IMG/VR virus record: IMGVR_UViG_3300027749_000208
Coordinates: 1-41,642 of that record
Reading direction: 5' to 3' (one strand)
DNA from: a virus
Taxonomy: Duplodnaviria; Caudoviricetes
Length of the DNA stretch: 41,642 nt
A program made the position numbers and the translations under genes. The notes under the pieces are model-generated. The model was not told the DNA's origin and ran no database searches. It saw nothing but the letters and a program-made list of their open reading frames with translations. The stretch's first letter is position 1. Every line of letters starts with the position of its first letter. Below, one piece after another: positions 1 to 41,642 of this stretch.

Positions 1-125
1 CGAAAGACTGGGCGGTGAGTCATGTTCTTGAAAAGTAATGTTTCTTCTTCGCCATTTTCGGCAGCAAGTACAAGGGTTTCAAAGTCAATAGCCTTGACTT
101 TTTGCCAAGAGGCACCCTTCTTAAT
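1..125. repeat. Exact 125-bp copy of 40636-40760 (shared flank of the swapped cassette); diverged similarity continues to ~190
   Basis: Direct base comparison; first mismatch at 126 (c) vs 40761 (t). Confidence 0.95.
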
Positions 126-3100: not shown

Positions 3101-3173
3101 GGTATAAACCTGTGAGTCCAGTAAAGTCGGACACACCTTTAGCCATCTTGCCAATGGAATCAAACCAACTCAT
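3..3173 (-). CDS. Giant internal virion (ejection) protein, N-terminal ~1057 aa including cassette allele A; runs off the left end and continues at 40635->37479 on the circle (~2109 aa total)
   Basis: ATG at 3173-3171 overlaps the TGA of the upstream gene (ATGA). Frame read manually MSWFDSIGKMAKG...FKNMTHRPVF with no stop; absent from the ORF track because it has no stop in the window. Bases 1-125 equal 40636-40760, in frame with the 37479 ORF. Confidence 0.85.
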   Translation of the reverse strand, partial: MSWFDSIGKMAKGVSDFTGLTGLYHDLSTSMSNSDPWYVDSLNVAKDIGKIGSTPVRAAVKGVLAVGEESYKLGGVARQAIEKGILDTPLMYNKFKNTDETYDAYKTRVDANKDQISLGQATLSLLSPGKNSADRSGFFQDWTDNNLRFMSAGFDIFNAEDRKAAFQDQYTGKFISGMEDVVASTVIDPLTFTGFLGKGAVIASKATMLDQINGRMARAVFGKLAMTPEKVDALVAAGVKGEGPAAKDLQYLAETDAAGQAGYWAKKKVTNPDAMAFLFGRTKTVEEVGEVFSAITGKNTKAMAALAERDPETGLVLEKFLDGPSHAERQLLDGKLQGDILVSEEHNAAISSYVTDLIATDTRYSMALDKVATGGTQLKYGFERGISKGASIKAGEKQAARTFGEPGIETFQKTSLHPVIKVVNYFREDLPSGVFNVNDGNSFQEFNTFLREVNDLSGRTFGAKGRVLADNYLNAATEVERLDAITKAEQSALGHLFPQYSSDEIDTLYQLFDSRRAGAIAKHKDQGFISYFVGDTIQHAVAPMLNREAANTVIIADMRKLKYAIDAHEGSLKTILSSIDTQDLALRGQKGLAALDTVNDIFKTSVLMRLGYTVRNVTEAQLSMAAKGFALPGMFLANGKEGAARFFNNRKTGFSRLGDHINVILGRTDDSKVLADEVGRYVDALRNDDMTSDQMAKHINQRLGELLDSQKGFVERQGPMPEKGGRPLRVQDEVKLLLGALSDLESKVTYHGSSTRFDINEARSLSTSGVKSIADRYAKGGTFHSVEQYIETPSGRPGRIGDKPMEHPRSEPWQGPLTLEQELANRIHAGGFSVNGVTYDSPKSGYMVARATGGVTLPSQSVDETIGHIKQYLEKNRAVFEKDPTLHFGGWYNKQAKELVLDFSDNVAKEDIATTLGTNRDQYSIWDIKNSKEISTGGTGGSLGKSEYEKHPDSIFGEGTVVRVNPEELLSNVRSGTVGVGRKPSTSTARQERLKEATIKLQSDMIDAVNEGKRVEIKKGASWQKVKAIDFETLVLAAENGEEETLLFKNMTHRPVF
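779..905. repeat. Exact 127-bp copy of 41516-41642 (other shared flank of the cassette)
   Basis: Direct base comparison; the match extends to 762/41499 with one mismatch at 778. Confidence 0.95.
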
Positions 3174-8460: not shown

Positions 8461-9042
8461 ATGAATCGTGAACAATGGCTCAACGAGTTAGCGAATCAGG
8501 CCCTGCCTGTAATCGCTCGAACTCTCGATAGTTATGCTCAATTCCGCGAGGAGGAATCGGCTGTACGCCTCTCCTGTGGGTTCCCTGCTCAGCAAGGCAA
8601 GCGCAACAAGGTTGCAGCCTGCATAGTGCCTCCTACCGCCTCCGATGATTTCAGCGGGGAGATATTCGTATCCCCTACGATTTCGCAGGGCAACGAGGTT
8701 GCCCTCGCTGTGCTGCCCCTATTGTGCGCCACAGTGACAGGCGACTATCGCAAGGGCGCTGCCTATCGTGAGGCACTCAAGCGCAACCGTTTAAACGCTG
8801 CAAGCCTGCCTGCATGGGCTGCTGCAATCGTGTCAACCTTGCCCGCTTACCCTCACGCTGCAATCACGCTGCAGCCTCAAGATAAGCAGACTACCCGCCT
8901 CCTCAAGGTTGCCTGCTTAGGTGACCTAATGAATGGCGAACAGCATGCAGCCTACATTGTGCGAATCTCTCGCACTACCCTTGCCAATTATGGCAGCCCA
9001 ATCTGCCCACTATGTGGTGCAGCACTAGCGGAAGGAATCTGA
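8461..9042 (+). CDS. SprT-like (zincin-fold) phage protein with degenerate HExxH motif and C-terminal Zn ribbon
   Basis: Family motifs REQWL, VRLSCGFP, EIFVSP, YPHAA, KQTTRLLK, PICPLCG. The position expected for HExxH reads LPLLCA. Confidence 0.65.
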   Translation: MNREQWLNELANQALPVIARTLDSYAQFREEESAVRLSCGFPAQQGKRNKVAACIVPPTASDDFSGEIFVSPTISQGNEVALAVLPLLCATVTGDYRKGAAYREALKRNRLNAASLPAWAAAIVSTLPAYPHAAITLQPQDKQTTRLLKVACLGDLMNGEQHAAYIVRISRTTLANYGSPICPLCGAALAEGI

Positions 9043-9044
9043 CC

Positions 9045-9779
9045 ATGAGCGCAACCTACGGAATTGAACTAGAGATGAGCGACCTCTCAATCTCCTCAGC
9101 CCAAGCACGTTTAAACGCTATCGGCTTGAACTGGTCATGCAAGCCTGACGGTACCCGCGGGGTTACCGCGGAGGCTGTTAGCCCTATCCTTGCCTACACT
9201 GACCTAAGCGAGGGCAGCAAGGCAGCCCGCGCACTGGCTCAAGCAGGCGCAACAGTCAACAAGCAGACAGGCTTCCATGTGCACTTAGGCGCTGACCACT
9301 ACGGCCTAGAAGGTATCGCCCTCCTTGTGCAGAATTGGAATCTGGCTCATGAGACAATCGGGGCGCTTGTTGCACCCTCCCGTTTAAACAATCACTTCTG
9401 CAATTCTGTACCATTGAGTCAAATTGACTCATGGGTAGAGAATGTACGCGCAGGCAATATCCGCAACATGGGCAACGGAGGGCGCTACTACAGCCTCAAC
9501 CTTAACGCCTATGCAACGCATCGCACGGTGGAGGTTCGCCTACATCATGGCACGCTTAACGGTAGCAAGATTAAGGCATGGGCCGAGTTTTGCGGGGCCA
9601 TGGCTCAATTCTCCGCTGACGGGGGAATCCTAGATAGTCAATTCTCCAACATTGCAGACCGAGAGGGTGCCCGTTTAAACGCGGTACGAAATCTCCTAGA
9701 TATTCTCTCCGAGAATCATCTCGACATTGCAACAGCCTCTTATCTCAAGGGTAGAGCAGCAGACCTAAACGCCCGCTAA
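9045..9779 (+). CDS. Putative amidoligase (COOH-NH2 ligase, Amidoligase_2 family)
   Basis: YGIELE, PDGT, EAVSPIL, TGFHVH, RYYSLN, TVEVRLHHGTLN motifs; ATG 9045 after AAGGA SD. Confidence 0.88.
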   Translation: MSATYGIELEMSDLSISSAQARLNAIGLNWSCKPDGTRGVTAEAVSPILAYTDLSEGSKAARALAQAGATVNKQTGFHVHLGADHYGLEGIALLVQNWNLAHETIGALVAPSRLNNHFCNSVPLSQIDSWVENVRAGNIRNMGNGGRYYSLNLNAYATHRTVEVRLHHGTLNGSKIKAWAEFCGAMAQFSADGGILDSQFSNIADREGARLNAVRNLLDILSENHLDIATASYLKGRAADLNAR

Positions 9780-9786
9780 GCGGGCA

Positions 9787-9832
9787 GCCTGCCCCTAGTG
9801 GGTGAGCGAGGGTGCAATCCCCTCGGCAGGCA
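9787..9832 (+). ncRNA. tRNA-like mini-element (7-bp acceptor stem plus 5-bp T-arm, no anticodon arm)
   Basis: GCCTGCC(9787-93)/GGCAGGC(9825-31) plus discriminator A; GAGGG-TGCAATC-CCCTC T-arm; only 14 nt between the stems. Confidence 0.55.
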
Positions 9833-9899
9833 CTCATGGCGCAAGCCATGAACACGACAAGCACAACGCGAACTCGTGTTTAAACAGTAAGGACTGGAA

Positions 9900-9989
9900 A
9901 TGAATCTTTCAATCATAGACGGGCGCTCATTCTTAATCGTTGCAATCATTGCTGCCGTGTGGATTTGGTACTGGTGCGGTGAAAGATAA
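9900..9989 (+). CDS. Small membrane peptide (29 aa, MNLSIIDGRSFLIVAIIAAVWIWYWCGER)
   Basis: Manual translation; preceded by the AGGACTGG RBS motif; one hydrophobic helix. Confidence 0.55.
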   Translation: MNLSIIDGRSFLIVAIIAAVWIWYWCGER

Positions 9990-10155
9990 CGAATTGTTAT
10001 ACATCGTTGAAGGTGTAGACCCTAGCGGGCGCAAGTTCGCTGGGCTATACAACATCGAAGAAGCCCGCGACCTAGCGAGCGCTAATCGTTTAAACATAGT
10101 GCGTGACAGATACACGCATGCTGTGATACAATCAACTAATCAATCGAAAAGATAG
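9979..10155 (+). CDS. Hypothetical protein (GTG start, ~58 aa)
   Basis: In frame with track ORF 9940..10155; fills the gap in the early operon. Confidence 0.55.
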   Translation: MKDNELLYIVEGVDPSGRKFAGLYNIEEARDLASANRLNIVRDRYTHAVIQSTNQSKR

Positions 10156-10166
10156 GACTGGAAAAT

Positions 10167-10988
10167 ATGTGCGGAATTGCTGGATTTTGTTTAACGCCTG
10201 CCGAATGTGCAACCTCATTAGAGGTTAGCAACATGGCAGCACAGATGCTGCTTGATATTGAACACCGAGGCCAAGATGCCACTGGTGCATCATGGGTTAA
10301 CACTGGCACTAAGAAGCGGGCAATCTTAAAGCACGCTATCCCTGCCTCTCAATTCGTGCCAATCGTAGGCGATTACCTATGCGAGAACGCGCAGACTGCA
10401 ATCTTACACACAAGATACGCAACCAAAGGCAGCCCCAATAACCGCGACAATAATCACCCAATCGCACGGGGCAACATCGTGCTCACACATAACGGACACA
10501 TCAGCAATGACGATGAAGTGTTTAAACGCTTAGGTGTACAGCGCAACGCTCAAGTTGACAGCGAAGCAGCAGCAGCATTGCTTGCCTTCACTAGCAAGTA
10601 TCACCCCGCCGAAGTACTGGGCACTCTTAAGGGTGGCGCAGCCCTTGCATGGATTACATCTACAGATGCAGCAACGCTACATCTAGCACGCCTTGCCTCC
10701 TCTCCCTTGTGGGTAGGACAGACGACACGGGGTAGCCTTGTCTATGGCTCAACCTATGAAGTTATATTCAACGCAGCAATCATGCTCAATGACGACCTAT
10801 CATGGGAGTACGAAGTTGATAACGGAACTTATCTCAAGGTGCGTGACGGGCGCATCATCGAACACGAGACGTTTAAACCAGCACTCTCTGCCGTGTACAG
10901 CGTGGCATCGTGGCAAGATAAAAAGATAGACACGAGTTACAAAGCACGCGCACATCGCACAAGAATACAGGAACTACTGCCCTTCTAA
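10167..10988 (+). CDS. Class II (Ntn) glutamine amidotransferase
   Basis: N-terminal MCGIAG, HRGQDATG, HTRYAT, NNHP, HNGHISN, VDSE. Confidence 0.92.
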   Translation: MCGIAGFCLTPAECATSLEVSNMAAQMLLDIEHRGQDATGASWVNTGTKKRAILKHAIPASQFVPIVGDYLCENAQTAILHTRYATKGSPNNRDNNHPIARGNIVLTHNGHISNDDEVFKRLGVQRNAQVDSEAAAALLAFTSKYHPAEVLGTLKGGAALAWITSTDAATLHLARLASSPLWVGQTTRGSLVYGSTYEVIFNAAIMLNDDLSWEYEVDNGTYLKVRDGRIIEHETFKPALSAVYSVASWQDKKIDTSYKARAHRTRIQELLPF

Positions 10989-12670: not shown

Positions 12671-12858
12671 TGGCACCTACAAACTACAACACATTGAAAG
12701 ATGAGATTGTCTTTCACCTTATTCAAAGCGGATACACATTCTCATCAGAGAACGGCGACCCCGTGGTAATCAGACCAATGAAGGTAGCAGTGCTGCTAGA
12801 TTCAGTGCTTGACTACATGATAGGGGCTGGCTATGCAACCACAACGAAACTCTCCTAG
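12670..12858 (+). CDS. Hypothetical protein (62 aa, MAPTNYNTLK...)
   Basis: TAATG coupling with the SLT gene. Confidence 0.6.
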   Translation: MAPTNYNTLKDEIVFHLIQSGYTFSSENGDPVVIRPMKVAVLLDSVLDYMIGAGYATTTKLS

Positions 12859-13243
12859 CGTAAAGTTTATCCACATGCTCAGCAATATACCGAGAGCATA
12901 CAAGCCACAATTCCACAGAGTTATGAAGTCAAAGGTAATAAATGGCTTGACCTACTACCGTTTAAACTACAATGCTAAAGCCTTCGAAGGTGCAGCATGT
13001 GCTGGTGCCGATACGGAAATGTTCTACCCCGATAGCGTGCAATTCAGCAGAGAAGAAGCCCTGTTCTATGCCACATTATGTAGTGATTGCCCCGTCAAAG
13101 CAGCATGCTTGGAGTGGGCACTAGCCCACGAAAGGCAGGGTGTATGGGCAGGAACCTCACCCGAAACACGAACTGCCCTACGCAAACGCCTTAAGATAGG
13201 ACTCAAAGACCCAAACGATTACACCGACTCAGAGTTGCGGTAG
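12833..13243 (+). CDS. whiB: WhiB-family Fe-S transcription factor (start uncertain, may be downstream)
   Basis: AAC...EMFYP...LCSDCPVKAACLEWAL...GVWAG motif. Confidence 0.9.
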   Translation: MQPQRNSPSVKFIHMLSNIPRAYKPQFHRVMKSKVINGLTYYRLNYNAKAFEGAACAGADTEMFYPDSVQFSREEALFYATLCSDCPVKAACLEWALAHERQGVWAGTSPETRTALRKRLKIGLKDPNDYTDSELR

Positions 13244-15314: not shown

Positions 15315-15554
15315 TCATCCCAACTCCTTCTCTATGGCTCGGATAGTCCTGCAAGGATAGACAACATAGGTGTTGCAGTATTCATCACAGAATAACCCTG
15401 AAAGGCTATGGCAATCTATGTACTCTGCTGAACAACCACCAGTTTCATCAGGCTTATGCAACTCCACTACTGCACGAAGTGCTGCATTGTCCTGACTCCC
15501 TGCGTACCTACGATTAGTTGAACTTAATTTTTTCAGCAATTCATCGTGTGTCAT
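15315..15554 (-). CDS. MTHDE...AIEKE family small Cys-containing protein, copy 3
   Basis: MTHDELL...LRAVVELHKPDE...IRAIEKELG; ATGA coupling. Confidence 0.7.
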   Translation of the reverse strand: MTHDELLKKLSSTNRRYAGSQDNAALRAVVELHKPDETGGCSAEYIDCHSLSGLFCDEYCNTYVVYPCRTIRAIEKELG

Positions 15555-15757
15555 CGCATCTCCTTTTCTATGGCTTGGATTGTTTCGCAAAGGTATTGAT
15601 TGCATACACCGCAATGGTTGAACTCATCAGGCTTATGCAACTCCACTACTGCGCGAAGGGCAAACCAAGAAGCATTATCTCTACGGCAGGATTCACAATC
15701 ATCTCCACATTTTGTGAAATTGTCGTCTATCTCTGCCAACAATTCATTGTGTGTCAT
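15551..15757 (-). CDS. MTHNE...AIEKE family small Cys-containing protein, copy 2
   Basis: Shares a 29-bp exact repeat (15624-15652 = 15445-15473) with copy 3. Confidence 0.7.
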   Translation of the reverse strand: MTHNELLAEIDDNFTKCGDDCESCRRDNASWFALRAVVELHKPDEFNHCGVCNQYLCETIQAIEKEMR

Positions 15758-18172: not shown

Positions 18173-18389
18173 CTGTGAGTTCCTGGAATCTACCAGTCTC
18201 CTTTTTCTTCCAAACAATCGCTTTCCATCCAATCGTATAGGTCGCATTTGCTGGCACTAACATCAACTGTGCCTTCATATCAGTTAGCAACTGCTTGGTG
18301 GGTATTGTTAATTCATTTGTTACTTGTTTTAGTGGAACCTCACCACCGTTTTCGGCTACGGTTAGTTCCCATTCACTTGCGTTACTCAT
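18063..18389 (-). CDS. Hypothetical protein
   Basis: ATGA-coupled to the helicase gene. Confidence 0.6.
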   Translation of the reverse strand: MSNASEWELTVAENGGEVPLKQVTNELTIPTKQLLTDMKAQLMLVPANATYTIGWKAIVWKKKETGRFQELTDDEFKQFLETGTAEYTRGNPSHGGEVKHSIGSEGTT

Positions 18390-19165
18390 GCTTGCACCAT
18401 GTCCAATACACTCATACTTGCGGGGTCATAAGAAAGCCAGACTGGTGAACCACCACTGGCATCAGCAGGACCGTAACGATTTTTAACTGCGTTAACTCCC
18501 ATAGTTGCTAACTGCGGATAGACAGTCAGGATAAGGCTTGGCGTTTGTGCTACCTTGCCATGTAATGCAAAGCGTGGAGGACAAGGGTTACCTTGTACAC
18601 CCTCGCTAGTGTGATGACAGACAAGCACTGCTGCGCCTGTCTCTCTAGCCCACCACTTGAGTTCCTTCATCAGTGTGCGTAATCCGCCCCACTCATCTTG
18701 TCCATCAAGGGTTACATCAACTGCATTGTCTAAGACAATCAAGTGCACATCTTCACCAAGGCGCTCTCGCGCAGCAAGGACTGCATCTTCAATGTCTTTT
18801 AATGTTGGTGCTGAATCAAACTCCCACATGATGTGGTCAGCAGGCTTGAGCATTTGTGCTGCCCATTCCCTGTCTTGGTCCATCAAAGGCTCAACCTCTT
18901 GTTGAGGTTTACCTGTGAGCATAGCCAATAGGCGTAGGCTCATGGTGTGTGAGTGTGTATCAGCAGATATGTACAGCGTGGGTACCTTGGCATGTACTGC
19001 CAGTGCTAAAGCAAATGTAGATTTTCCAGCCCCTGGAGGGCCAGCAACCATGCTTACCTCACCGTAACGAAATGAAATCTGTTGCGCTCCAAGAGAGTGC
19101 CACACTGTAGGCAGCGTAGCACCCCCTTGGGATGCGGTCTTAATAGCCCGCGATAGTAAGCGCAT
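18386..19165 (-). CDS. DnaB-like (SF4) replicative helicase
   Basis: GEVSMVAGPPGAGKST, LYISAD, IVLDN, CHH, VKNRYG. Confidence 0.88.
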   Translation of the reverse strand: MRLLSRAIKTASQGGATLPTVWHSLGAQQISFRYGEVSMVAGPPGAGKSTFALALAVHAKVPTLYISADTHSHTMSLRLLAMLTGKPQQEVEPLMDQDREWAAQMLKPADHIMWEFDSAPTLKDIEDAVLAARERLGEDVHLIVLDNAVDVTLDGQDEWGGLRTLMKELKWWARETGAAVLVCHHTSEGVQGNPCPPRFALHGKVAQTPSLILTVYPQLATMGVNAVKNRYGPADASGGSPVWLSYDPASMSVLDMVQA

Positions 19166-19167
19166 GA

Positions 19168-19575
19168 TTATCCCTTAGCGGAACAAGCAGTCTCTCGTGG
19201 ATTTGGGCAAGCAAAGAACGACTTGTATGGCTTACCCACTTTACTAATGCCTGCAGGAACCATACGCATAGGCAAGCCATGGTCGCAGGTTGGTGAAACA
19301 CTAGGTGTTGATTGATACGGAGTTGTTGTGGTGTTAACTGCAGTTGGTGCAATAGCACCGTAATGTGCCTGTTGTGCCACAGGTTGTGGATTTAATCCAG
19401 CACTTGATAGTGCACCCAAGGCTGTAACTGTCTGCTCAAGAGCAACGATGTTAACGATGCGTGTTGTTAATGAATCAATGTACTGGTCTAACTCTGCCTC
19501 ACTCCATGCACGGACATTAAGAAGTGTTCCGCCAGGGGTCTTGAGGTTAATCTGAAATGGTGCTTCGTTACTCAT
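19168..19575 (-). CDS. Conserved actinophage protein with C-terminal Zn-binding motif
   Basis: PTCDHGLPM...GISK.GKPY..FFACP; lies between nuclease and helicase. Confidence 0.65.
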   Translation of the reverse strand: MSNEAPFQINLKTPGGTLLNVRAWSEAELDQYIDSLTTRIVNIVALEQTVTALGALSSAGLNPQPVAQQAHYGAIAPTAVNTTTTPYQSTPSVSPTCDHGLPMRMVPAGISKVGKPYKSFFACPNPRETACSAKG

Positions 19576-20419
19576 GGACTTCGCTTTCTGTTAGTTCGGG
19601 ATAGAGATATGAATCTTTGCCGTTGACGGCATAACAAGCATGATTGACTGAACAAGTACCACACATGAATCCAGTGTTAGGCATGAAGATGTTGTTCTCC
19701 ACTGCCAGTTTAAACGACTTAACACGGGAGCCAAGGCGTGACTCTGTATAGTGTGAGAGGTCGGCGGGGCTACTTAATTCCCCAGTCCTAGCCATCCAGT
19801 AGGCACCCTTGACAGGGAGCATACCAAATACTTTCTCTACCAGTATTGCGTAAGTGCCCAACTGTTCGTTGGACTTAGGTTCTTGTGCGCTTGTCTTGAT
19901 GTCAATGACAGTGAGTTCACCGTCAGGTGAGACCATGAGGCGGTCAAGATAGCCTCGCACTTTTACTCCATGTACTTCTTTTAGGAGTTCAGTTTCGATT
20001 GCTGGCCTTCCATCAGGCATAATGAATACCTGATACCCGCTTTCTTGGCGGAATTGAATCCAGTAATCAACCATCTTTGGACCATTGGCAAGCCACCATG
20101 AAGCATCTTCCTTGTTTGGATATGCCTTAGTTGACCTACCGCCTGCCCTGAATGGCATGCCAGTATCGCTGGCTGCGTACTCTTTGTTCCACTCGTTGGT
20201 AAATACCACCGTAGGGTCAAAGACTCCCGCATCAGCGGGCCATGTGTCATATATTTCAGTTGCAGTGTGTACAGATTTACCGCCTACTAACCAGTAGGAA
20301 GGGTTCTCAGTTACGTTCTGCACTCGGCTAAGGTAATAGTTCCAGCCACAGTTGAGCCAAGTTGTAATGGCGCTGTGACTGACGTAATCCTTGCCAGTTA
20401 GATTTTGTAATGTTGTCAT
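19568..20419 (-). CDS. RecB/Cas4-like PD-(D/E)XK exonuclease
   Basis: SHS...CG..Y, G.SVH, RGYLDR, IDIKTS, QL..Y, C..C.....C Fe-S motif. Confidence 0.88.
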   Translation of the reverse strand: MTTLQNLTGKDYVSHSAITTWLNCGWNYYLSRVQNVTENPSYWLVGGKSVHTATEIYDTWPADAGVFDPTVVFTNEWNKEYAASDTGMPFRAGGRSTKAYPNKEDASWWLANGPKMVDYWIQFRQESGYQVFIMPDGRPAIETELLKEVHGVKVRGYLDRLMVSPDGELTVIDIKTSAQEPKSNEQLGTYAILVEKVFGMLPVKGAYWMARTGELSSPADLSHYTESRLGSRVKSFKLAVENNIFMPNTGFMCGTCSVNHACYAVNGKDSYLYPELTESEVHE

Positions 20420-30993: not shown

Positions 30994-31716
30994 TTACTTG
31001 CCCTTTTTCTTGAGCATGGACATTCCTTTTGAAACTTCCTTCTTAACCTGAGCCTTTGATTCGCCCTTCTTAAGTTCCATCTTCTTCTGGCCCTTAGGCT
31101 CAGTCTTTTCAAAGGCTGCATACGCTGCCTTCTTTGCAATCTTCTTTGGTGCTGCCATGATATTCCCCTTTTGTGTTATGACTTTGACATCTCCACCAAC
31201 ACTAATTGTGTAGTCGGCAGAAATCTTAATTGCCCTGCGTGCTGCGAACTCTGCAGCCTTCATAGAGTTCTTGTTGAAGCCAGTGGCTAATGCACCCAGT
31301 GCTATTGAGCCACCGCTTCCTACTGCGTACAATCCACGGTCATCCCTTGACCATAAATAGTCCTGGTCTACTTCGTAGATAATTCCGTTTAAACAGATAA
31401 GAGCATCAAAGCCAGCATCTTTATCGGCTGTATCTGGTGTGTAACTGTTCTCTCGCATAACTTCACGCAAGGAAGGTAGAACCTTTGTCTGTATAAATAT
31501 ATCCGTAGGCACTGTCTTTATCACCTTGGGTGGTGCCCATATAAAATTCGCTATATTGCCAGCAATGGCATCACCTGCAAAGGCAAATACATAATCACCC
31601 TTGCGTGTTACCTTTTCAAAACTTTTGGAAAAGTATGGCTTGTCATTATAGGTAGTCATGGAATCTGCTGCTATAACTGCCCAGCCTTTTCCCTGAATAC
31701 CTACGATGGCTGTCAT
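30994..31716 (-). CDS. Proteasome-beta/HslV-like Ntn hydrolase with in-frame Lys-rich C-terminal segment
   Basis: M-T N-terminal nucleophile, IAADS, K, AFAGD, YAVGSG..ALGAL; internal AAGGGGA SD before ATG at 31158. Confidence 0.8.
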   Translation of the reverse strand: MTAIVGIQGKGWAVIAADSMTTYNDKPYFSKSFEKVTRKGDYVFAFAGDAIAGNIANFIWAPPKVIKTVPTDIFIQTKVLPSLREVMRENSYTPDTADKDAGFDALICLNGIIYEVDQDYLWSRDDRGLYAVGSGGSIALGALATGFNKNSMKAAEFAARRAIKISADYTISVGGDVKVITQKGNIMAAPKKIAKKAAYAAFEKTEPKGQKKMELKKGESKAQVKKEVSKGMSMLKKKGK

Positions 31717-32318: not shown

Positions 32319-33491
32319 TTATGACTGGATTGATGAACCAGTCTCAATGCGGTATAACGCAGCCTGACGGTATAGTGAGAATCCGAGGACTCCGTACCAA
32401 CCGATAGGACGGAAACGCATCAAGCGGTCAACGACTGGTCCGATGATAACGTTTGGCTCCTGTGCAACTGCCTCAGCAAGTGCTTGCTTTCCAGCAAGAA
32501 TTGTGCGGTAGTTAGCAACTACTGGAGTTACTGTTACAACGGTTGTCGCTGTTACTGCTGCTGTGTTAGCAGTGTCAACAGTGATTGTAGTAGTTGAACC
32601 TGATGTAACCAAAGATGTAATCTTTGCACCTGATGCAACGCCTGTACCTGAGATTTTATCTCCTGCTTCTGCAGAAGTAGCAATGATTGATGTTGAAGCA
32701 ACACCAAATGTGTAACCTGCTGATGTACCAGCAACAGTTACTGCAGTTGTAGCAAATGCTGAACCATCTGCACCATCTATGCCACGGTACATACGAGGTG
32801 TTTCTACGAAGTAGGCACCCTCAAATGTTCCGATAGTTCCTGGCCAGAACTGTCCTGTGCCAGTCTCTGCGTACTTGTGCATGTCGTTCCATCCACCAAC
32901 GCCTGTTTCGGCGCGTAGGTCATGTGATACTTCTGGGTGGATACCACACCAGTAGAGTGAGCCTTCGCGTGGAACAGCCTTGTTTGAACGCAACTTAGCA
33001 ACAGCCTTACGGATGTTTGCAGCAGTTAGTGTGTCAGATGCTGTGATTGTGGCTGTTGTTGTACGGGCTCCGCCGTAGATAACATTTGTGCCAGTACGCA
33101 ATGTTTCCATTGCAATCTTGTCAAGTGAGTCAGCCATGTTGAAAGCGATGATGTCAGCAACTGCTGGGTCAACGTCAGACAATGAGAATAACTGCAACTT
33201 GCGAGTTACAAGTGAAGCATTACCGTATTCAGCAAGTGATACTGAAACGGTTGAAACATCTGACAATGCTACTGCATCTGGGTCAGTTGTCTCTGATGAT
33301 AGTGCGGATGTTGCCGCAGCCAAGTCATTGTAAATTGAGAATACAACGCTTGAACCTGGCATCGCTTGCTGAGCAGGGCGCTTGTCGGCTACTGAACGAA
33401 TCAGTGGCTGAGCACGAAGCGCGAACTCTACATAGCGGTCATACGCGGTTTTGATTAAGCCAGCGAGTGCTGACGAATCTGTGTATGCCAT
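32319..33491 (-). CDS. Major capsid protein (N4-gp56-like, HK97 fold)
   Basis: EYGN, DS.D, IRKAVAKL, IHP.V.HDLR, GTIG.FEG..FVE, G..ALA.A, DRL.RFR.IGWY; GGAGG SD; follows scaffold gene. Confidence 0.9.
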   Translation of the reverse strand: MAYTDSSALAGLIKTAYDRYVEFALRAQPLIRSVADKRPAQQAMPGSSVVFSIYNDLAAATSALSSETTDPDAVALSDVSTVSVSLAEYGNASLVTRKLQLFSLSDVDPAVADIIAFNMADSLDKIAMETLRTGTNVIYGGARTTTATITASDTLTAANIRKAVAKLRSNKAVPREGSLYWCGIHPEVSHDLRAETGVGGWNDMHKYAETGTGQFWPGTIGTFEGAYFVETPRMYRGIDGADGSAFATTAVTVAGTSAGYTFGVASTSIIATSAEAGDKISGTGVASGAKITSLVTSGSTTTITVDTANTAAVTATTVVTVTPVVANYRTILAGKQALAEAVAQEPNVIIGPVVDRLMRFRPIGWYGVLGFSLYRQAALYRIETGSSIQS

Positions 33492-34109: not shown

Positions 34110-35585
34110 TTATACTGCGCTATTTGCTTTAAGTGATGCTGACCCAATGCCAGTGTTACCACCAAAGCGTGCTACTTCACGCGCTGCACGGCGTTGTGAG
34201 TCAAGAATTGTTGCTTGGTCTTTACCAAGGATTGCGGTGACTGCATCAAGGTCATTGTATTGAGCACCTTCAATGGCAGATAAAGAGCCTTGGCTATTTG
34301 CAAGTTGACGAGCCTGTTGGAATGTAACATCAAGTGATTGAAGGTCCATGGTTCCTGCAGCGTTAATGAATGACTCAGCAACACCGTAACCTGCTTGTGT
34401 CTGTCCAAAGTCAAACTTAGATTTAAGAGCCTGTGCACCAATTTCAGCAGCACGAGATTGGCGCTTGATAATATCAAGGCCAACTGTTGGATTAAGAAGG
34501 TATGTAATTGCTGCTGACTTATCTACACCATAGTAGAGATTAAGTTCTGCAAGAACATCAGGGTTCTTTTCAACATCTTGTGATGCAATGGCTACTCTAT
34601 CTTCAAACTCTTTAGGTGAAGTTAAGCCACCAATGTACTTACCCATTTCAGCAGTAGTACCAAAGATATTCTTGTCAATGCCATAGTACTGCAAGGTTTG
34701 CAAGAAACCCTTTTCCATGTTGATATATGTGCCTTCGTCAACTGCTTTACCAGCAGCGCGTAGAGCATCCATACCAGGAAAGCGTGCTTTGTAAGCAGGG
34801 CTTTTGATTAACTCTAAATACATCTGTGCTTTTGTGTAATCGTTTTTGATTAAACTATCTAATTCATCAACTAAATCCTGAGGTAGGCCAAGGCCCTTCA
34901 TGGTATTGGCATACTCAACATTGGCTGCAAGTCGTCCTTGTTTTGCTATGTCAGCAGCAGTCTCTGCTGCAACGTCAACAATGACACCGTTCCTATATGT
35001 TGAACCAAACATGCTTCCACTAAATGGTTTGCCATCTTGAGTAAATGGGTCAGCAACTGTACCGCTACCACCAAAGTTGCCAGCAGTAGAATTGGCTGGG
35101 TTTCCAACTTTGACTATTCCATTGGTATAAGTCTGTCCGTTGTATACGCCAGTAAAAGGTGCACCATTAAATTGAAGTACTCCACCTACGGTTTTGTAAC
35201 CAGTAGTATCTGTTGCACCTGTAACAGCAGTGCCTCCGCCACGAGAACCTGATACAAAATCAGGATTTTTTTCAGTAACAGTAGAAACCTTTTCTCCACC
35301 CTTACCGTCAGCAGTTACTGCTCGGCGTAGTGTTCCAGTTGTAGCAGTATTGTTTTGGTAATCCCAACGGACAAATGTTCCTGCTGCAGGAAATGTAACC
35401 GCAGCCTTTGTGACTACAGGCACAGCAGTGCTTACTACAGTACCTGCGGTTGCTGCACGCAATCGTGCATCCATTTGAGAATCAGTAAGTGCTGGTGCCT
35501 TAGTTACCACTACTGGTGCTGCAACTACATCTAGTGCTGCAAGTGATGACATTCCTCCGCCATCGGCACTTGTATATTCTCTCAT
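34110..35585 (-). CDS. Internal virion protein (putative)
   Basis: 491 aa; Thr/Gly-rich N-half and helical C-half; in the run of coupled genes before scaffold. Confidence 0.6.
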   Translation of the reverse strand: MREYTSADGGGMSSLAALDVVAAPVVVTKAPALTDSQMDARLRAATAGTVVSTAVPVVTKAAVTFPAAGTFVRWDYQNNTATTGTLRRAVTADGKGGEKVSTVTEKNPDFVSGSRGGGTAVTGATDTTGYKTVGGVLQFNGAPFTGVYNGQTYTNGIVKVGNPANSTAGNFGGSGTVADPFTQDGKPFSGSMFGSTYRNGVIVDVAAETAADIAKQGRLAANVEYANTMKGLGLPQDLVDELDSLIKNDYTKAQMYLELIKSPAYKARFPGMDALRAAGKAVDEGTYINMEKGFLQTLQYYGIDKNIFGTTAEMGKYIGGLTSPKEFEDRVAIASQDVEKNPDVLAELNLYYGVDKSAAITYLLNPTVGLDIIKRQSRAAEIGAQALKSKFDFGQTQAGYGVAESFINAAGTMDLQSLDVTFQQARQLANSQGSLSAIEGAQYNDLDAVTAILGKDQATILDSQRRAAREVARFGGNTGIGSASLKANSAV

Positions 35586-37042
35586 TAGCCCACCATTCCA
35601 AACATCTTAGCCATGTCCAGTGCATTTGTGCTATAGACTTCTTTAGCATTGCGTGTCTGTTGCCATAGTGGGTCTGATTTAACTTCTTTAGTAAAGTCTG
35701 CAAAGGTACGAGCAGCACCTGTAGTTGTATCAATAGTCTTTTTCATTAAGTCATTCCAAGAAACATTGCTTTCATCTACTTCAAGTAGACTAGCCATCTG
35801 TCCTCGGTATGCACGAGTTGCCTCATAGAGTGTGCGCCCTGAATCAAGTGCAGTTTTAAATGCAACATTGTTAGGGTTTTCAATCGCCTGACGGCGCATC
35901 TCTGCAATGTAATAGTTTGCATCTTTAGAATCTGTTGGGTCAAGCAGAGAGTTGTTAATTATCTTCTCATAGGCGGGTGTAAGAGTTACGCCATAGGCAT
36001 AGGCAGTATCACGAATCTTAGATAGTGAACTACCAATCTCGCCACCACCAGTAAAGACAATAGGTGCCTGTCCAGCAAGATAATCTTTAAGTTGGTTATC
36101 ATCCCAGCCGTTCTTGACGGCTTCCTGTGCGATACCACTGACATAGCCAGTCTTATCAAATGCTTTGCCTGTTATAGGGTCAATGCCCTGCACGTTTAAA
36201 CCAAGTTGTTCTAAGTAACTAGATACTGAGGCAACCTTGTTACGGATTAACTCAACAGTTGTTGACTGTTTGCGTGGGTCATGTGTATCTAAATACCATG
36301 AGCGTAGGCTAGGTAGCGTTGTCTGCCACCATGATGTGCCTTCAAGTTGCATTTGGAACTGGTCTGCTGTCCAGCCTTCGGTTGATGCCTTATCAAATAA
36401 TCCATCAATCTGACTCTTTTGGTCTTTGTTATCTAAGCCAGCAAAGGTTGAGCGTAGGTAGTCAACATACATTGTTTTAAGTGCTAATTCTTTTGCGGTA
36501 ACTGCAGCATCTGCAACGCCTTTTGCTTTTGCTGCTTTATCAGATGTTGCTTTTGCTGCTGCTGTTTTTGCATCGGCTGCTGCTTTGGCATCTGCTGTTG
36601 CTTTGTCAGTGGCTGCTTTTGCAGATGCTGCAGCAGCATCTGCTGCTGCTTTGGTCTCTGCTGGTGTCGTTGTCATTGCAGAAGGGCGTACATAAGTACC
36701 CTGCTCATAAGCAGGTGTACCTGGAGCAAGGCTTTCACCCATTGGGCCATACTTAGGAGCAGGCTGTCCAGTTAAATCTTCTTTGCGCTTTGCTGCTTCT
36801 GCTGCAGATTTTGTATCTGTCGCAGTTTTTGCTTTTGCTTTATTGGTAGCATCGGTCTTTTTGATTGCATCAATTTGATTTTGATAATCTACAAGAAGGG
36901 CTTTGGCAGCATCATATTTCTTTTTTGTATCATTGTAGTAATCACTACCAACTTTAGAGGTTGACATTTGGTTCTGTAGTTGGGCAATAGTAATCTGCGT
37001 TGGTTGCAGTTTTTCTCTAAGTTGCGGAAGCGTAAGTGCCAT
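35585..37042 (-). CDS. Internal virion protein (putative) with Ala/Lys-rich helical segment
   Basis: 485 aa; TAATG coupling at both ends. Confidence 0.6.
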   Translation of the reverse strand: MALTLPQLREKLQPTQITIAQLQNQMSTSKVGSDYYNDTKKKYDAAKALLVDYQNQIDAIKKTDATNKAKAKTATDTKSAAEAAKRKEDLTGQPAPKYGPMGESLAPGTPAYEQGTYVRPSAMTTTPAETKAAADAAAASAKAATDKATADAKAAADAKTAAAKATSDKAAKAKGVADAAVTAKELALKTMYVDYLRSTFAGLDNKDQKSQIDGLFDKASTEGWTADQFQMQLEGTSWWQTTLPSLRSWYLDTHDPRKQSTTVELIRNKVASVSSYLEQLGLNVQGIDPITGKAFDKTGYVSGIAQEAVKNGWDDNQLKDYLAGQAPIVFTGGGEIGSSLSKIRDTAYAYGVTLTPAYEKIINNSLLDPTDSKDANYYIAEMRRQAIENPNNVAFKTALDSGRTLYEATRAYRGQMASLLEVDESNVSWNDLMKKTIDTTTGAARTFADFTKEVKSDPLWQQTRNAKEVYSTNALDMAKMFGMVG

Positions 37043-37479
37043 TATTTTGCCTGCGCTTTTCTAACATCGGCTGCAACAGACTGATAGATAACATCAAGAT
37101 ATTTATTATCTTGCTTTATCTTATACTCTGGTGATGCAGTAATTGAATTGGTAAGGGCTTGTTGGCGACCATACATGCTTGTATCTTGTGACTGGCCCAT
37201 GATGAGATTGATTGCTTTTGAGTAATCGTTACCTGTGGCATTACGCCCAAGCATCTGTTGGTAAACAGTCTGTACTGCATAGTCTGCTTCTTGCTTTGTA
37301 AATACAGCCCCAGTTGTACCAGATGTTGTACCACCACCTGCTGCCTTAACTGCAGCAAATGCTGCTGCAAGGTCAAATGTTCCAGATGTCTTAGTCACTA
37401 CAGGTTTAGTTGTTACCGCTGGCGCTTTAACAGTGGTGTCACCCATTGCTGCTGCGCCTTTTTCTATAGGACTTGTCAT
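37042..37479 (-). CDS. Small internal virion protein (putative)
   Basis: 145 aa; YQQMLGR.A motif; coupled to neighbours. Confidence 0.6.
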   Translation of the reverse strand: MTSPIEKGAAAMGDTTVKAPAVTTKPVVTKTSGTFDLAAAFAAVKAAGGGTTSGTTGAVFTKQEADYAVQTVYQQMLGRNATGNDYSKAINLIMGQSQDTSMYGRQQALTNSITASPEYKIKQDNKYLDVIYQSVAADVRKAQAK

Positions 37480-40400
37480 TAGAGCACCACCGAATCATTT
37501 GCGAAGTAACGGTTAATAAATTGTTCAAACTCTGGACTACCATTGGTTAGTTCGTCCACAAACATTTTGTAAACTTGAGCAACATCTGTATTGCTTTTAG
37601 CACTTAGGCTTCCTGAGCCACCAGCGTTATTGCGCTCTGCAAGAATTGCAGCAAATTGTTTGCGACCATCAAGATAAGCAAGTGCTTGCTTGACAACTGC
37701 ACGGTCACCGTTCTGAGCCATCCACTTTTTGTCTTTAAAGACATTATCAAGGATTACTGCACGGCGCTCATACTTTGCTCTATCTGGGGAAGCATAGGCT
37801 GAGTACCAGTCAAGATTATCTTTCTTCATCTGGTCCAACCAGACAGATTTAATCTGCTTAATGATTCCAGCGTTAGGGTCATTGGCATCTGTGACACCAT
37901 TTTGCTTTTGGTATGCACTGATTTGACCCATTACATCTTGATACTGTGTCCACCCACGCTTGACGTTGGCTTCAATAAGGAGTTCGTTGGCTGTACGATT
38001 CTGACGGTATGTGCTACCACTGCCAGGTGTTGCACCATGCTTGTACTGCCATTGATAGGCAGCCTGTGAGAATGTGTATTGGTTATCACCATCATTAGCA
38101 AGGAAGCCTAGAAGTTCGCTATCACCTGAACTCTGAGCCATAGCCATAATGTTGCTAAACTTCTTAAGGTTACGCACAGTCTGAACGCTTGGCTCTAATC
38201 CGCCTTGGTTCTTTGACTGACTAATTGTAGCCTCAAAGAAATCTGGATACATTTGAAGAAACTTAGCATCTGCCATTCCAAGTACACGTTCACCAGTTTG
38301 TGGGTCGCGGTAGTCAGCATATTGCTGTTGGAACTGACGGTATGTTTGAGCGTAGAAGTCAACCTCAGGAGCCACGGCAAATGGTGCTGAGATAGAAGTC
38401 AAGGCACGAAGGAAGAAGAACTTATTAGTTCTATCTGTAATTTCCTGTACCGTTGGAGCGGTAGTGCGCTTGCCTTGGTTAAAGTTGTAAGTCTCATAGC
38501 GAAGCATCTGATTGTATGAGCGAACATACAAGTCATCTCTGCTCCACACAGTGCTCAAACGGCGCAGTGCGCTTGGTAGGAACAAGTCTGTTGCCTTCTG
38601 TGGCATACCCGCTGGGAAGAATACCTTGAGAGCATCTTCTAATTCAGGGCGTTCCTTAAGTATTAAGTACGCTGGAAGAACTGCGAATGGGCCAAAGCCT
38701 GGGTTACCTGGCTGGCCCTGTGTCACAACATCAAGGCTGTTTAGCGGAATGTTAATGTTCTTAAATGAATCTTGAACAATACCTTGCCATGACTTAGGCA
38801 GTGTGTCAATGAATCCTTGAGGTACACGCACTACAAGGTTAGCCATCTTGCCACCTTGTAACTGGTTTGCATCTGTGATGCGGTTACCATCTTGGTCAAT
38901 GATTGTTTGACCATGTACAACCTGTGCGATTGTACGGCCTGCTGTTGCGATAAGCGATGGGTCCTCCATCGCCATACCACCCCAACGGCGGATAGTGTTT
39001 TCGTAGGCTGCGTAAAAAGGAAAGAGTAGTTTAACTACACGGCTAGATGATGCACCACTACGGCGAACAATAGTGAACAAAGTCTTTTCAACTTCTTGGC
39101 GTGAAGTCTCACGGGCGTGAGTTACTGCACGGTTAAGTTCGTTAGCAGTAAGTCTTTCTTCACCCTTGACACGAGAAATAGCAGCGATGTTAAGTTTAAG
39201 TTGTTTGTCATACATGGCTGATGCCAATGGGTGACGAGCAAATACATCTTCTGGTAGTGAACCAAGGAAGCGCATAACACGGCGATTAACAGTGTCAATG
39301 ATACGCTCTTGGTCTTTGTATTCTTTAGATGTTACAACAAGTAAACCGTTAAGTGGTGTCAACTTCTCGGGAGCAGAGGCAAAGCGTTCTGTTAGGAACT
39401 GTTGAATCTGTCCACCTGAAAGTGGCTTGCCATCTTCTTTACCAGTACTAAGAATTACTGCTGTCTCATTATCTGGAATATAAGCCCTGACTCCACCACG
39501 AGTAATGTTTATCTTTTCAAGTAACTTCTCATCCATTTCACCGCTTGTTACTTTGTGGAAACCAAAGTACTTGCCAGGTTGAGTGTATGTTGAGTTAGCA
39601 TAGATGCTACCTTCGCGGGTATGAAACCACTCAAGGATTTTCTTGTCAGACTCGTTATCAAGAATCCTACGAACAACATCATCCATAACGCCTGTCTCAG
39701 GGTCGCGGAAGTGCATATTAAGAATGTTTGCCCAGCCTTCAAAGTAGCGTGGGTCAGTAGGCTGAATTAGGCGAACGCTGCGTGAGCCAATTCCTGTAAG
39801 GAAAGCCATCTCCTGATTAGATACTTGGTTGTTCCAAGTCTGCTCAGCAGAAGTACGCCCAAAGAACCATGATGCATCTTGATATGCCTTAGGTAATTCA
39901 TAGGACTGTCCACCAGCAGTAATTTGATGATAACCGTAACCAACGCGTTGTTTAACAGCATTAGTTTCTGCTACATCAATACGAGCACCAAGGCGAGTAA
40001 CTGCATCATCAAGTGCTGCAAGAGATGCAGCCTTGCTACGAGCAATGTTTGCAGCAGCATCTTCGATACCGTTGTTAATCATTGACTGTAAACCATCTTG
40101 TAGATAGTAAGGTGATATAGCGTTATCTCTAATGCCTGAGCGAGCACGCTTCTTGGAAGCACGGCTTGCAAGACGGCGTTCTGCTGGATTCATATTGGCA
40201 GCCTCAAAATCAACTGCAACATCTGCCATAGCCTGAGGCAATACACCTTCTTGAACTGACTTAAGGTATTGCTTTACCTGACGTTCACGGCCTGCTGAGC
40301 CAATAGCGCCAGGAAGAATAATGTGGCTTTGTCCAGCAGCACGCTTGTCATCTGAAACAACAAGACTTCCGTAGCCATTTTCTTTTGCCCAACGGCTAAC

Positions 40401-41642
40401 CGTATCGTCTGGGTTCTGCCAACCTTTTGTTTTAAGCCATGTATTAAAGTTGGAAGATTTGTCAGCAAATGCTTCTGTCTTAAGTTCTTCTGGCAAGTTG
40501 CGCCATGAACCAACAATATCTGCTGGTGTCATATCGCTTTTGCCTGCAGCAAACTCTGCTTGTGATTTCTTGGTAAGGGTTAAAGCCTTGCCATAAGAAC
40601 GAACCTGTGCTGTCTTACCTTCGTTGTAGCCAACGCGAAAGACTGGGCGGTGAGTCATGTTCTTGAAAAGTAATGTTTCTTCTTCGCCATTTTCGGCAGC
40701 AAGTACAAGGGTTTCAAAGTCAATAGCCTTGACTTTTTGCCAAGAGGCACCCTTCTTAATTTCAACTTTCTTACCTGCATTAACTGCATCAATCATATCT
40801 GATTGGAGTTTAATCATGGCTTCATTTTTAATATCAGTACGCTTAAGAGATACTTTTTGTTCTGGAAGTATTGCTTCAAGTTTTACAAGACGACCTTGAA
40901 CTGGCTTGCGGTCACGACTTTCAATACCTGGAGCAACGCCAATTTCTGAATCTTGTATTGAAACAACTTTAAACTTTACACCTGCTGGAAGTAGGACTTC
41001 TTGTTCTGAACCAACGCTAGTTGCTGTTTGGTCAATATTAAAGCCCTTATATGTTGCTTCAATATCTAAACCAGGGTGACCTTTCGGTACCTTGATTTCA
41101 AAAAGCGTTGGTTTAAATCCCCCGCTAGCACCAACAAATGCACTACTACTTGCAACATTTATATCTTTGCTTGTAGAAGTAAAGCCCTTTTCAGAAATTA
41201 CTTGTCCAACAGTTAAGTTTTCGTATGGCGTACCAGAGGCGGTAATGCCACGATAAACCGTTGTATTCTTATTAACAGTACTGCGTTGAACTGTGCGTTT
41301 TAATCCAGCAACCCATTCTTCGCCTTGCTTGTTTAAACCTTCTGGTAAGTAATCTTCATTAAAATAAAAACCACGAAGTTGTGACTGCTCAATACCAGCA
41401 ACACCAGTCACCCATGGGCGTACATACTTACTAAAATCTGCTTTTGGCATTTGTGCTACAACACCTGGAGTACCAATTTCGGCTCCTGGGGCAAGAGATG
41501 GCTTATCACCAATATGACCTGGGCGACCAGATGGAGTCTCAATGTACTGTTCTACTGAGTGGAATGTGCCACCCTTGGCGTAACGGTCAGCGATTGACTT
41601 AACCCCAGATGTAGAAAGAGAACGAGCCTCGTTAATGTCAAA
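37479..41642 (-). CDS. Giant internal virion protein, C-terminal part with cassette allele B (R-S-E ADP-ribosyltransferase domain at ~40950-41400); open to the right end (~2143 aa on the circle)
   Basis: Frame is open from 41642 (checked 41451-41516 manually; the rest equals 779-905). ART motifs TVYRG, GFTSTS, LFEI..P.G, EQEVLLP.G.KFKV. Confidence 0.88.
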   Translation of the reverse strand, partial: FDINEARSLSTSGVKSIADRYAKGGTFHSVEQYIETPSGRPGHIGDKPSLAPGAEIGTPGVVAQMPKADFSKYVRPWVTGVAGIEQSQLRGFYFNEDYLPEGLNKQGEEWVAGLKRTVQRSTVNKNTTVYRGITASGTPYENLTVGQVISEKGFTSTSKDINVASSSAFVGASGGFKPTLFEIKVPKGHPGLDIEATYKGFNIDQTATSVGSEQEVLLPAGVKFKVVSIQDSEIGVAPGIESRDRKPVQGRLVKLEAILPEQKVSLKRTDIKNEAMIKLQSDMIDAVNAGKKVEIKKGASWQKVKAIDFETLVLAAENGEEETLLFKNMTHRPVFRVGYNEGKTAQVRSYGKALTLTKKSQAEFAAGKSDMTPADIVGSWRNLPEELKTEAFADKSSNFNTWLKTKGWQNPDDTVSRWAKENGYGSLVVSDDKRAAGQSHIILPGAIGSAGRERQVKQYLKSVQEGVLPQAMADVAVDFEAANMNPAERRLASRASKKRARSGIRDNAISPYYLQDGLQSMINNGIEDAAANIARSKAASLAALDDAVTRLGARIDVAETNAVKQRVGYGYHQITAGGQSYELPKAYQDASWFFGRTSAEQTWNNQVSNQEMAFLTGIGSRSVRLIQPTDPRYFEGWANILNMHFRDPETGVMDDVVRRILDNESDKKILEWFHTREGSIYANSTYTQPGKYFGFHKVTSGEMDEKLLEKINITRGGVRAYIPDNETAVILSTGKEDGKPLSGGQIQQFLTERFASAPEKLTPLNGLLVVTSKEYKDQERIIDTVNRRVMRFLGSLPEDVFARHPLASAMYDKQLKLNIAAISRVKGEERLTANELNRAVTHARETSRQEVEKTLFTIVRRSGASSSRVVKLLFPFYAAYENTIRRWGGMAMEDPSLIATAGRTIAQVVHGQTIIDQDGNRITDANQLQGGKMANLVVRVPQGFIDTLPKSWQGIVQDSFKNINIPLNSLDVVTQGQPGNPGFGPFAVLPAYLILKERPELEDALKVFFPAGMPQKATDLFLPSALRRLSTVWSRDDLYVRSYNQMLRYETYNFNQGKRTTAPTVQEITDRTNKFFFLRALTSISAPFAVAPEVDFYAQTYRQFQQQYADYRDPQTGERVLGMADAKFLQMYPDFFEATISQSKNQGGLEPSVQTVRNLKKFSNIMAMAQSSGDSELLGFLANDGDNQYTFSQAAYQWQYKHGATPGSGSTYRQNRTANELLIEANVKRGWTQYQDVMGQISAYQKQNGVTDANDPNAGIIKQIKSVWLDQMKKDNLDWYSAYASPDRAKYERRAVILDNVFKDKKWMAQNGDRAVVKQALAYLDGRKQFAAILAERNNAGGSGSLSAKSNTDVAQVYKMFVDELTNGSPEFEQFINRYFANDSVVL

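Follow-up and report, generated by a model that had tools for sequence, protein, structure and literature searches.

The 41,642-nt stretch of tailed-virus DNA analysed here (the window; IMG/VR record IMGVR_UViG_3300027749_000208) raises a simple question: why do its two ends carry different sequences between the same flanks, in the middle of one very long gene? Positions 1-125 are an exact copy of 40636-40760, and positions 41516-41642 an exact copy of 779-905. These unstranded overlaps form, respectively, the downstream and the upstream flank of two alternative branches, as a reading of the sequence alone had proposed. Both branches, allele A (126-778) and allele B (40761-41515), lie on the minus strand; their sizes of 653 and 755 nt were confirmed, and both are open in the frame of a single minus-strand gene. 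They differ by 102 nt, so that one reading frame is kept with either allele. The frame of ~2,100 aa announced earlier is by arithmetic 2,109 aa long with allele A and 2,143 aa long with allele B, the lengths of two database proteins (P0003 and P0006), and the overlaps yield, again by arithmetic, the two genotypes of 40,635 and 40,737 bp that had been predicted. Each branch includes some homologous flank that has diverged, the two alleles differing at 11 of 67 nt on one side and at one of 17 nt on the other. The unrelated cores are therefore shorter: 193-761 (569 nt) in allele A, which encodes an uncharacterised alpha/beta domain of ~115 aa, and 40828-41498 (671 nt) in allele B, which encodes a predicted R-S-E ADP-ribosyltransferase (ART).

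The two branches are those of an assembly bubble, as suspected: in the unitig graph of run X1 both overlap the same flanking unitigs. The unitig of allele B (815 nt) has a depth of 28.2 and that of allele A (713 nt) a depth of 5.5, which sum to the depth of the flanks (33.2 and 35.3); allele A is thus the minor genotype, around one-sixth of the population, and B the major one, in a run that is possibly the window's own source and hence not independent of it. Run X2 has pieces of allele B and one A-specific piece of 156 nt at depth 2.2, and run X5 has a contig of 7,928 nt that carries allele A across both flanks. Run X3 has pieces of B without cover of A, which is not evidence that A is absent there. 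Runs with small word shares were left out of this comparison, and linkage rests on contigs and unitigs, all sequences being assemblies of short-read metagenomes. In these graphs each allele is joined to both flanks. This confirms that the bubble is real and that the contig ends are its branches, in a freshwater phage of ~40.7 kb that encodes WhiB. Two other accounts of the ends were considered. That a single genome holds both payloads, within a terminal repeat, is disfavoured, since the unique part would need to be traversed twice, the depths sum, and complete relatives have a single slot. A mobile element, an intein or a site-specific switch is not supported either: we found no inverted or further direct repeats of at least 25 nt at the slot, and the window ORFs that were scanned included neither an integrase nor a reverse transcriptase.

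The gene that carries the alleles encodes a giant putative ejection protein. Its constant N-terminal part (aa 1-798; 779-3173, minus strand, within ORF 3-3173) and its constant C-terminal part (~1,093 aa; 37479-40760, minus strand) both match phrog_10618 (E 1.5e-47 for the latter) and are homologous to gp9 of the Streptomyces podophage Immanuel3 (hhalign 99.9% over 672 columns for the C-terminal part) and of other Streptomyces Beephvirinae; the scaffold profile matched no PDB sequence. The gene lies between the portal gene (3902-5719, minus strand; 39% identity to the annotated portal of Immanuel3) and the major capsid gene (32319-33491, minus strand; PF13252, E 6e-13), i.e., it encodes a large multidomain protein among virion genes. 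The large terminase is encoded at 5736-7598 (minus strand; 49% identity to the annotated one of Immanuel3). WhiB, a marker of actinobacterial hosts, is encoded at 12833-13243 (plus strand; PF02467, E 5e-14), and serves as such a marker in the part of a freshwater phage study available to us (PMC6802176). Together, WhiB, capsid, portal and terminase indicate a tailed phage, likely of Actinobacteria. We found no prophage relative in the genome contigs searched. The three genes downstream of the giant one (145, 485 and 491 aa; 34110-37479, minus strand) likely encode other internal or ejection proteins, the 485-aa product matching Immanuel3 gp11 (NlpC/P60) and gp12 (SLT) and the 491-aa product matching gp13. 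A cluster of large genes with partners that match the peptidoglycan-hydrolase-bearing gp11 and gp12 is what is expected around an ejection protein. From this gene context and the fold matches, the giant protein is likely an ejection protein, and we regard its entry into the host as quite probable.

Other genes of the window deserve mention. The 485-aa protein (35585-37042, minus strand) has the C-terminal half that is common to gp11 and gp12 and is Ala/Lys-rich where these have NlpC/P60 or SLT; it is possibly a second variable site. Among the virion genes there is a proteasome/HslV-like Ntn-hydrolase (30994-31716, minus strand; PF00227, E 3.9e-7), which could process virion proteins. A pair of Amidoligase_2 and GATase_6 genes, with an unknown gene upstream, is found at 8461-10988 (plus strand); it is a kind of phage module for which a role in modifying the cell wall of the host has been proposed. 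A direct repeat of 38 nt (95% identical, 179 nt apart) lies at 15445-15661, where the alignment of the relative G001 is broken into several short segments.

We classified the stretch between the GRPG and KLQSDMIDAVN motifs, hereafter the slot, in 189 homologous proteins (the best 120 of 304 matches, 68 more from the best 120 of 208, and P0124), a sample biased by the queries used. Six states were found: empty (75), a predicted helical hairpin of 74-79 aa (42), an ART (38), a ParB/Srx-like domain (22), the domain of allele A (11), and an ART and an A domain in tandem (1). The homologs thus vary widely at exactly this slot, as the existence of a swappable site implies. The earlier reading holds overall in having recognised the swappable slot; it missed that the slot is often empty, that its repertoire counts four payloads and that a constant ART-fold domain surrounds it. 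With 75 slots empty and 42 filled by a hairpin without evident catalytic site, payloads seem dispensable. In ~1,900 aa of scaffold, large insertions occur at the slot alone: among 123 slot-less scaffolds we found no other insertion of at least 25 aa, the only one seen being of 22-23 aa. Five viral records with an estimated completeness of 99-100% hold one state each (A, ART, hairpin, empty, ParB-like), and the reading frame is intact in every state at the 77 loci with both flanks. No fifth class of payload was found among the 189 proteins and 111 slot-bearing loci (77 and 34), which overlap one another and the 189 proteins, and exclude two loci that are apparently the window's own record; 10 and 4 loci lacked a flank. 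In three full-length members of one cluster (P0124, P0359 and P0361; slot at ~806-1215) the ART, which reads YRK and E-D-E, stands in tandem with the A domain. Empty linkers have few recurring lengths (20, 27, 28 and 32 aa) and are near-identical across distant clades (e.g., L025:6407-6466 and L019:6437-6517), which suggests that empty alleles may travel by recombination as well.

The identification of allele B as an R-S-E ART stood up well. The YRG, STS and EQE motifs that had been read from it are all present (R at 41250-41252, STS at 41169-41177 and EQE at 40998-41006, minus strand), and it matches PF03496 with 48.1 bits for a cut-off of 23.4 (E 1.1e-12), as well as Alt-like PHROGs that include T4 Alt-like ARTs. 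A profile of 12 ART payloads had 25 matches among PDB sequences with an E of at most 0.01, of which 23 are named as ARTs or toxin-effectors and two as viral histone-like proteins. The matches include enzymes of the VIP2, iota and CdtA type and entries named as R-S-E ARTs; the top ones are the PAAR-repeat proteins 6dre and 6drh, which we take to be the antibacterial effector Tre1. In 27 ART payloads, the arginine and the second serine are invariant (27/27 each), and both glutamates of E-x-E are present in 26. The E-x-E motif marks NAD+-dependent transfer to arginine, and allele B may accordingly be predicted to transfer ADP-ribose to arginine at the expense of NAD+. The ParB-like payload has a G-x-H-R-type motif (EGNHR in 15/15) and matches the ParB-like phrog_1033 in nine out of nine cases (best E 2.6e-4). 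PF02195 is found on 3 of 17 of its relatives; direct Pfam matches are under the cut-off and there is no PDB match.

The domain of allele A (minus strand) carries the motifs GGFSV, FGGW and TGGTGG, with their first codons at 684-686, 510-512 and 366-368. It has 816 relatives at E 0.001, and on 15 of the 23 long carriers that we scanned there are Pfam domains, MuF, portal, zeta toxin, NUDIX, GNAT, 2H and DUF7178 among them. It had no match in Pfam, its profile had none in PDB, and in the Atlas it matched only unnamed clusters, at 0.86-0.87. Its model is confidently folded (pLDDT 91.6) and matches 23 viral models, none of which has a name for this domain; among solved folds Foldseek found nothing in PDB and the best VIA-align match had a Z of only 4.6. 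We had presumed a resemblance to SAM lyase or to DUF3293-like domains. This is not supported, as no PDB fold matched and DUF3293 reached only E 0.53 in the viral library. Some carriers (P0125-P0131) are fusions of portal or head-protease-like proteins, with HPRDxxGRF-type motifs repeated between cargo domains. The A domain is likely an effector delivered from the phage head, and we point it out for study as an uncharacterised effector family.

If payloads are dispensable, the slot might simply be a permissive loop. Its payloads would then be near-neutral passengers, gained and lost through recombination, that adjust neither host range nor the evasion of defences. In line with this, more slots are empty than hold any one payload, and none of our measurements ties payload to host. 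We nonetheless find it unlikely: the catalytic motifs of the ART and ParB-like payloads are invariant, none of the 132 payload pairs with dS of 0.05-1.2 reached a dN/dS of 1 (medians of 0.35-0.41), and just four kinds of payload recur, three of which have relatives in phage conflict proteins.

It has also been proposed, for PF03496 in 24 freshwater phages, that such ARTs act against protists (PMC6802176); here the ART would be a "Trojan horse", poisoning protists when they feed on infected bacteria. In the part of that study available to us, domains are counted per genome in freshwater actinophages, and the text examined refers neither to a slot nor to alternative payloads; family and habitat are the same as here, and these ARTs may include members of the present family. 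The match of the payload profile to VIP2, iota and CdtA-type enzymes would fit such a toxin. Against it stand an ART embedded in a 2,100-aa protein of the virion gene cluster, where it is interchangeable with a ParB-like domain, the T4 Alt-like ARTs among the PHROG matches, and a scan of ORFs in which no binding partner was seen. The best PDB matches, moreover, are the PAAR-repeat proteins that we presume to be antibacterial. We therefore hold the anti-protist explanation to be improbable for this family.

The sequence-only reading held that payloads are exchanged by recombination in the conserved flanks, and this is supported by the incongruence of payload and scaffold and by diverged tracts beside the slot. 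Four proteins whose scaffolds are 98.6-99.4% identical (P0031, P0032, P0035 and P0037) have ParB-like, ART, empty and hairpin states. Conversely, ParB-like payloads that are 97% identical reside in scaffolds of 63% identity, and the nearest payloads of allele B (77-79% identical) in scaffolds of 59-63% identity. Different payloads in near-identical scaffolds and near-identical payloads in distant ones indicate that payloads move sideways. In a scaffold tree of 118 rows, built after removal of a duplicate and of four rows that were short, the states require 38 changes for a minimum of four, a count that cannot separate gain from loss and that is inflated by the clustering of the protein database at 90%, which hides near-twins with the same payload. 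The ART state alone requires 22 changes for 24 rows. States are nevertheless clustered on the tree (shuffled mean 49.1 changes; none of 200 shuffles as low as 38). The identity of ART payloads is nearly unrelated to that of their scaffolds (Spearman 0.11, 276 pairs), the relation is weak for ParB-like payloads (0.23), and it is strong for the A domain (0.90). We compared flanks at 57 unique loci, in pairs that are at least 93% identical at 300-900 nt from the slot and are not independent of one another. In the first 100 nt from the slot, identity dropped by a median of 20 points in 34 pairs with different payloads and by 0 in 16 pairs of the same class, the pattern expected if a payload arrives from a diverged relative together with short tracts of its flanks. 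Over 148-778 the window's allele A is identical to the locus L003, which resembles allele B at 126-147 and whose identity falls to 90.5% further downstream; this mosaic indicates recent and repeated crossovers. From these comparisons, payloads are very probably swapped by recombination. A PD-(D/E)XK nuclease, an L5 gp49-like protein and a RecA/DnaB-like ATPase, encoded at 18386-20419 (minus strand), are candidate recombination machinery.

The same comparisons bear on the idea that no exchange took place and that an ancestor with several payloads in tandem gave rise to the slot states through repeated losses. The ART and A tandem of the three full-length members just described could be a remnant of such an ancestor, and counts of changes are blind to the direction of change. 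Yet this explanation, already disfavoured by the incongruence of payload and scaffold, is about as improbable as the anti-protist one: loss alone would leave unexplained the four states in 99%-identical scaffolds, the 97%-identical payloads in 63%-identical scaffolds and the foreign-looking tracts that adjoin the slot, and the tandem is found in only one of the 189 proteins. A chimera, in which the assembler had joined alleles from unrelated phages, is very improbable. The window is indeed a short-read contig, linked via short overlaps in a run that may be its own source, but the depths sum, other runs and records also contain the two alleles, and the 77 two-flank loci are in frame in every state.

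What surrounds the slot is predicted to be a second, constant domain of ART fold. We modelled an empty-slot homolog (238 aa, alignment of 24 rows, pLDDT 82). Its best match by VIA-align was the anti-CRISPR protein AcrIF11 (6kyf; Z 9.3, rmsd 3.5, 116 residues aligned), followed over the same range by ART and RES folds (SAIP, MbcT, NatT, diphtheria toxin, ParT and PARPs, Z 4.4-6.4), and its residues 40-140 matched SH3-like and Hfq-like barrels (Z 4-6). In the window, the first half of this domain is encoded at 830-950 (minus strand), with His751 at 921-923 and Tyr777 at 843-845, and the second half at 40290-40604 (minus strand), with an acidic pair (DD) at 40347-40352. Inserted in the fold is a segment made of the KLQSDMIDAVN helix and a predicted SH3-like barrel (40632-40811, minus strand), and the slot is the loop immediately before it, the least confident part of the model (pLDDT 63-65). 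Both His and Tyr are present in all 123 scaffolds, 26 residues apart, and each D of the pair in 122. AcrIF11 requires H20/Y46 and D146/E147 according to the accessible text of a preprint (bioRxiv 10.1101/2024.08.26.609590); the His-Tyr spacing is the same, and an acidic pair near the C-terminal end is likewise conserved, the residues being likened by spacing alone and not by residue-level superposition. The call of an ART fold rests on VIA-align and on a weak match to PF18760 (ART-PolyVal; E 0.047 in one of 24 members and 0.097 in one of 18 half-domains); with the scaffold model Foldseek found nothing at E 0.001 or better, and AcrIF11 did not match the constant domain at the level of sequence. 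AcrIF11 itself is small, stands alone and targets Csy1, whereas here the fold would lie inside a giant protein with an insert of ~100 aa. Immanuel3 gp9 has 114 aa where the freshwater scaffold has ~457, and appears to lack the ART, SH3 and slot module. With allele B in the slot, an R-S-E ART would be nested inside an ART of another clade. As a flexible loop on an SH3-like barrel, the slot would place payloads outside the scaffold fold and make them optional.

Variable effectors delivered from the head are well established, as polymorphic toxins (PMC3482391), polyvalent proteins (PMC5512222), MuF toxins (PMC5576092) and head-fused ARTs (PMC9503650) attest, judging from the parts of these papers available to us. 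Polyvalent proteins are described as large, multidomain, encoded among late or virion genes and predicted to be injected, commonly with ART and ParB-like domains (Iyer et al. 2017, PMC5512222); mosaic orthologs have been reported, such as jhp1044 of H. pylori. Their domains are strung along the chain and freely rearranged, and their ARTs are of the H-Y-D clade. In contrast, we found a fixed scaffold of ~1,900 aa with a single slot, predicted to be nested in an ART fold, that takes one of four payloads including an R-S-E ART, and two alleles caught co-segregating. No MPTase, LPD, ArdC or SWI2/SNF2 hub domain was matched by Pfam in both window parts and 10 homologs, where the scaffold is mostly unannotated.

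MuF toxins are C-terminal and come with immunity genes. In the present family, an internal slot is carried by a protein other than MuF, and no gene is inserted downstream. MuF and other head-fused effectors do share with the present system a conserved virion protein with variable enzymes, ARTs among them (PMC5576092, PMC9503650, as far as available), and the A domain also occurs on MuF and portal proteins; MuF toxins are reported in the former as restricted to temperate phages. Polymorphic toxins diversify effectors by recombination on a conserved carrier, and so does this system. It does not place them at the C-terminus: the slot spans aa ~799-1000, with ~1,100 constant aa beyond. No cognate immunity gene was found downstream, where the same 145-aa gene family lies within 870 nt in 55 of 56 loci (14 of 14 ART loci), and no orphan toxin cassettes, since profiles of payloads and flanks matched only the two branches in the six frames of the window. 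The polymorphic-effector design put forward earlier thus holds for the internal slot and for recombination on a conserved carrier; with neither immunity gene nor orphan cassettes, the likeness to polymorphic toxins is by analogy only. While departing from them in three respects, the system may by this analogy work like polymorphic toxins, polyvalent proteins or MuF head effectors.

T4 Alt, described as packaged in the head and injected (PMC5512222, in part), and other VIP2-class ARTs (PF03496, phrog_802) share the R, STS and E-x-E motifs of allele B; Alt is a separate protein, whereas here the ART is an optional insert. The ejectosomes of podoviruses, i.e., cyanophage A4 (PMC12002296, in part) and gp9-gp13 of Beephvirinae (of which Abafar is a podovirus according to the available text of PMC11536984), are, as here, encoded by large genes grouped between those of portal and capsid, with hydrolase-bearing relatives. 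Residues 1418-1598 of a chain of the A4 pre-ejectosome (9k3a_B, by numbering likely gp27) match our ART-fold model with a Z of 5.7, a middling value that may reflect shared fold only. "ADP-ribosyl" does not occur in the main text of the A4 paper, and an ART fold in podophage ejectosomes has possibly gone unnoticed. In the literature searched, which covered few subscription journals, we met no description of this design, one optional bay nested in the conserved ART fold of an ejection-type protein.

Overall, we consider it probable that the window records two genotypes of a freshwater phage that differ at one internal slot of a likely injected giant protein, with payloads likely swapped by homologous recombination and likely directed against defences; taken on its own, the anti-defence role is somewhat favoured. 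The giant protein would be packaged with the ejection proteins and would enter the actinobacterial host alongside the DNA, where allele B would ADP-ribosylate arginines of host targets, as T4 Alt does. When two such phages infect one cell, one payload would be exchanged for another by crossovers that fall 20-200 nt inside the conserved flanks, and changing host defences would keep several alleles circulating. A more speculative and rather doubtful extension, built on the fold models, is that the constant AcrIF11-like ART is itself active in the ejectosome protein and that its variable region, the one for target recognition, is now an exchangeable bay; in AcrIF11, recognition of the target is predicted to lie with a variable helical region (10.1101/2024.08.26.609590, in part). 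Phages of acI-type Actinobacteria might then trade a second ART of another clade, a ParB-like nuclease or NTPase, an effector of new fold or a hairpin, each adding a second activity and shifting the target of the constant ART on entry, and the A domain would be an undescribed anti-defence family of more than 800 members.

Near-identical phages that differ in one injected module are a natural controlled comparison. With them, what effectors delivered from the head do can be put to a direct test, and so can the contested part that PF03496 ARTs play in phages of fresh water, whether in host takeover or as toxins against protists.
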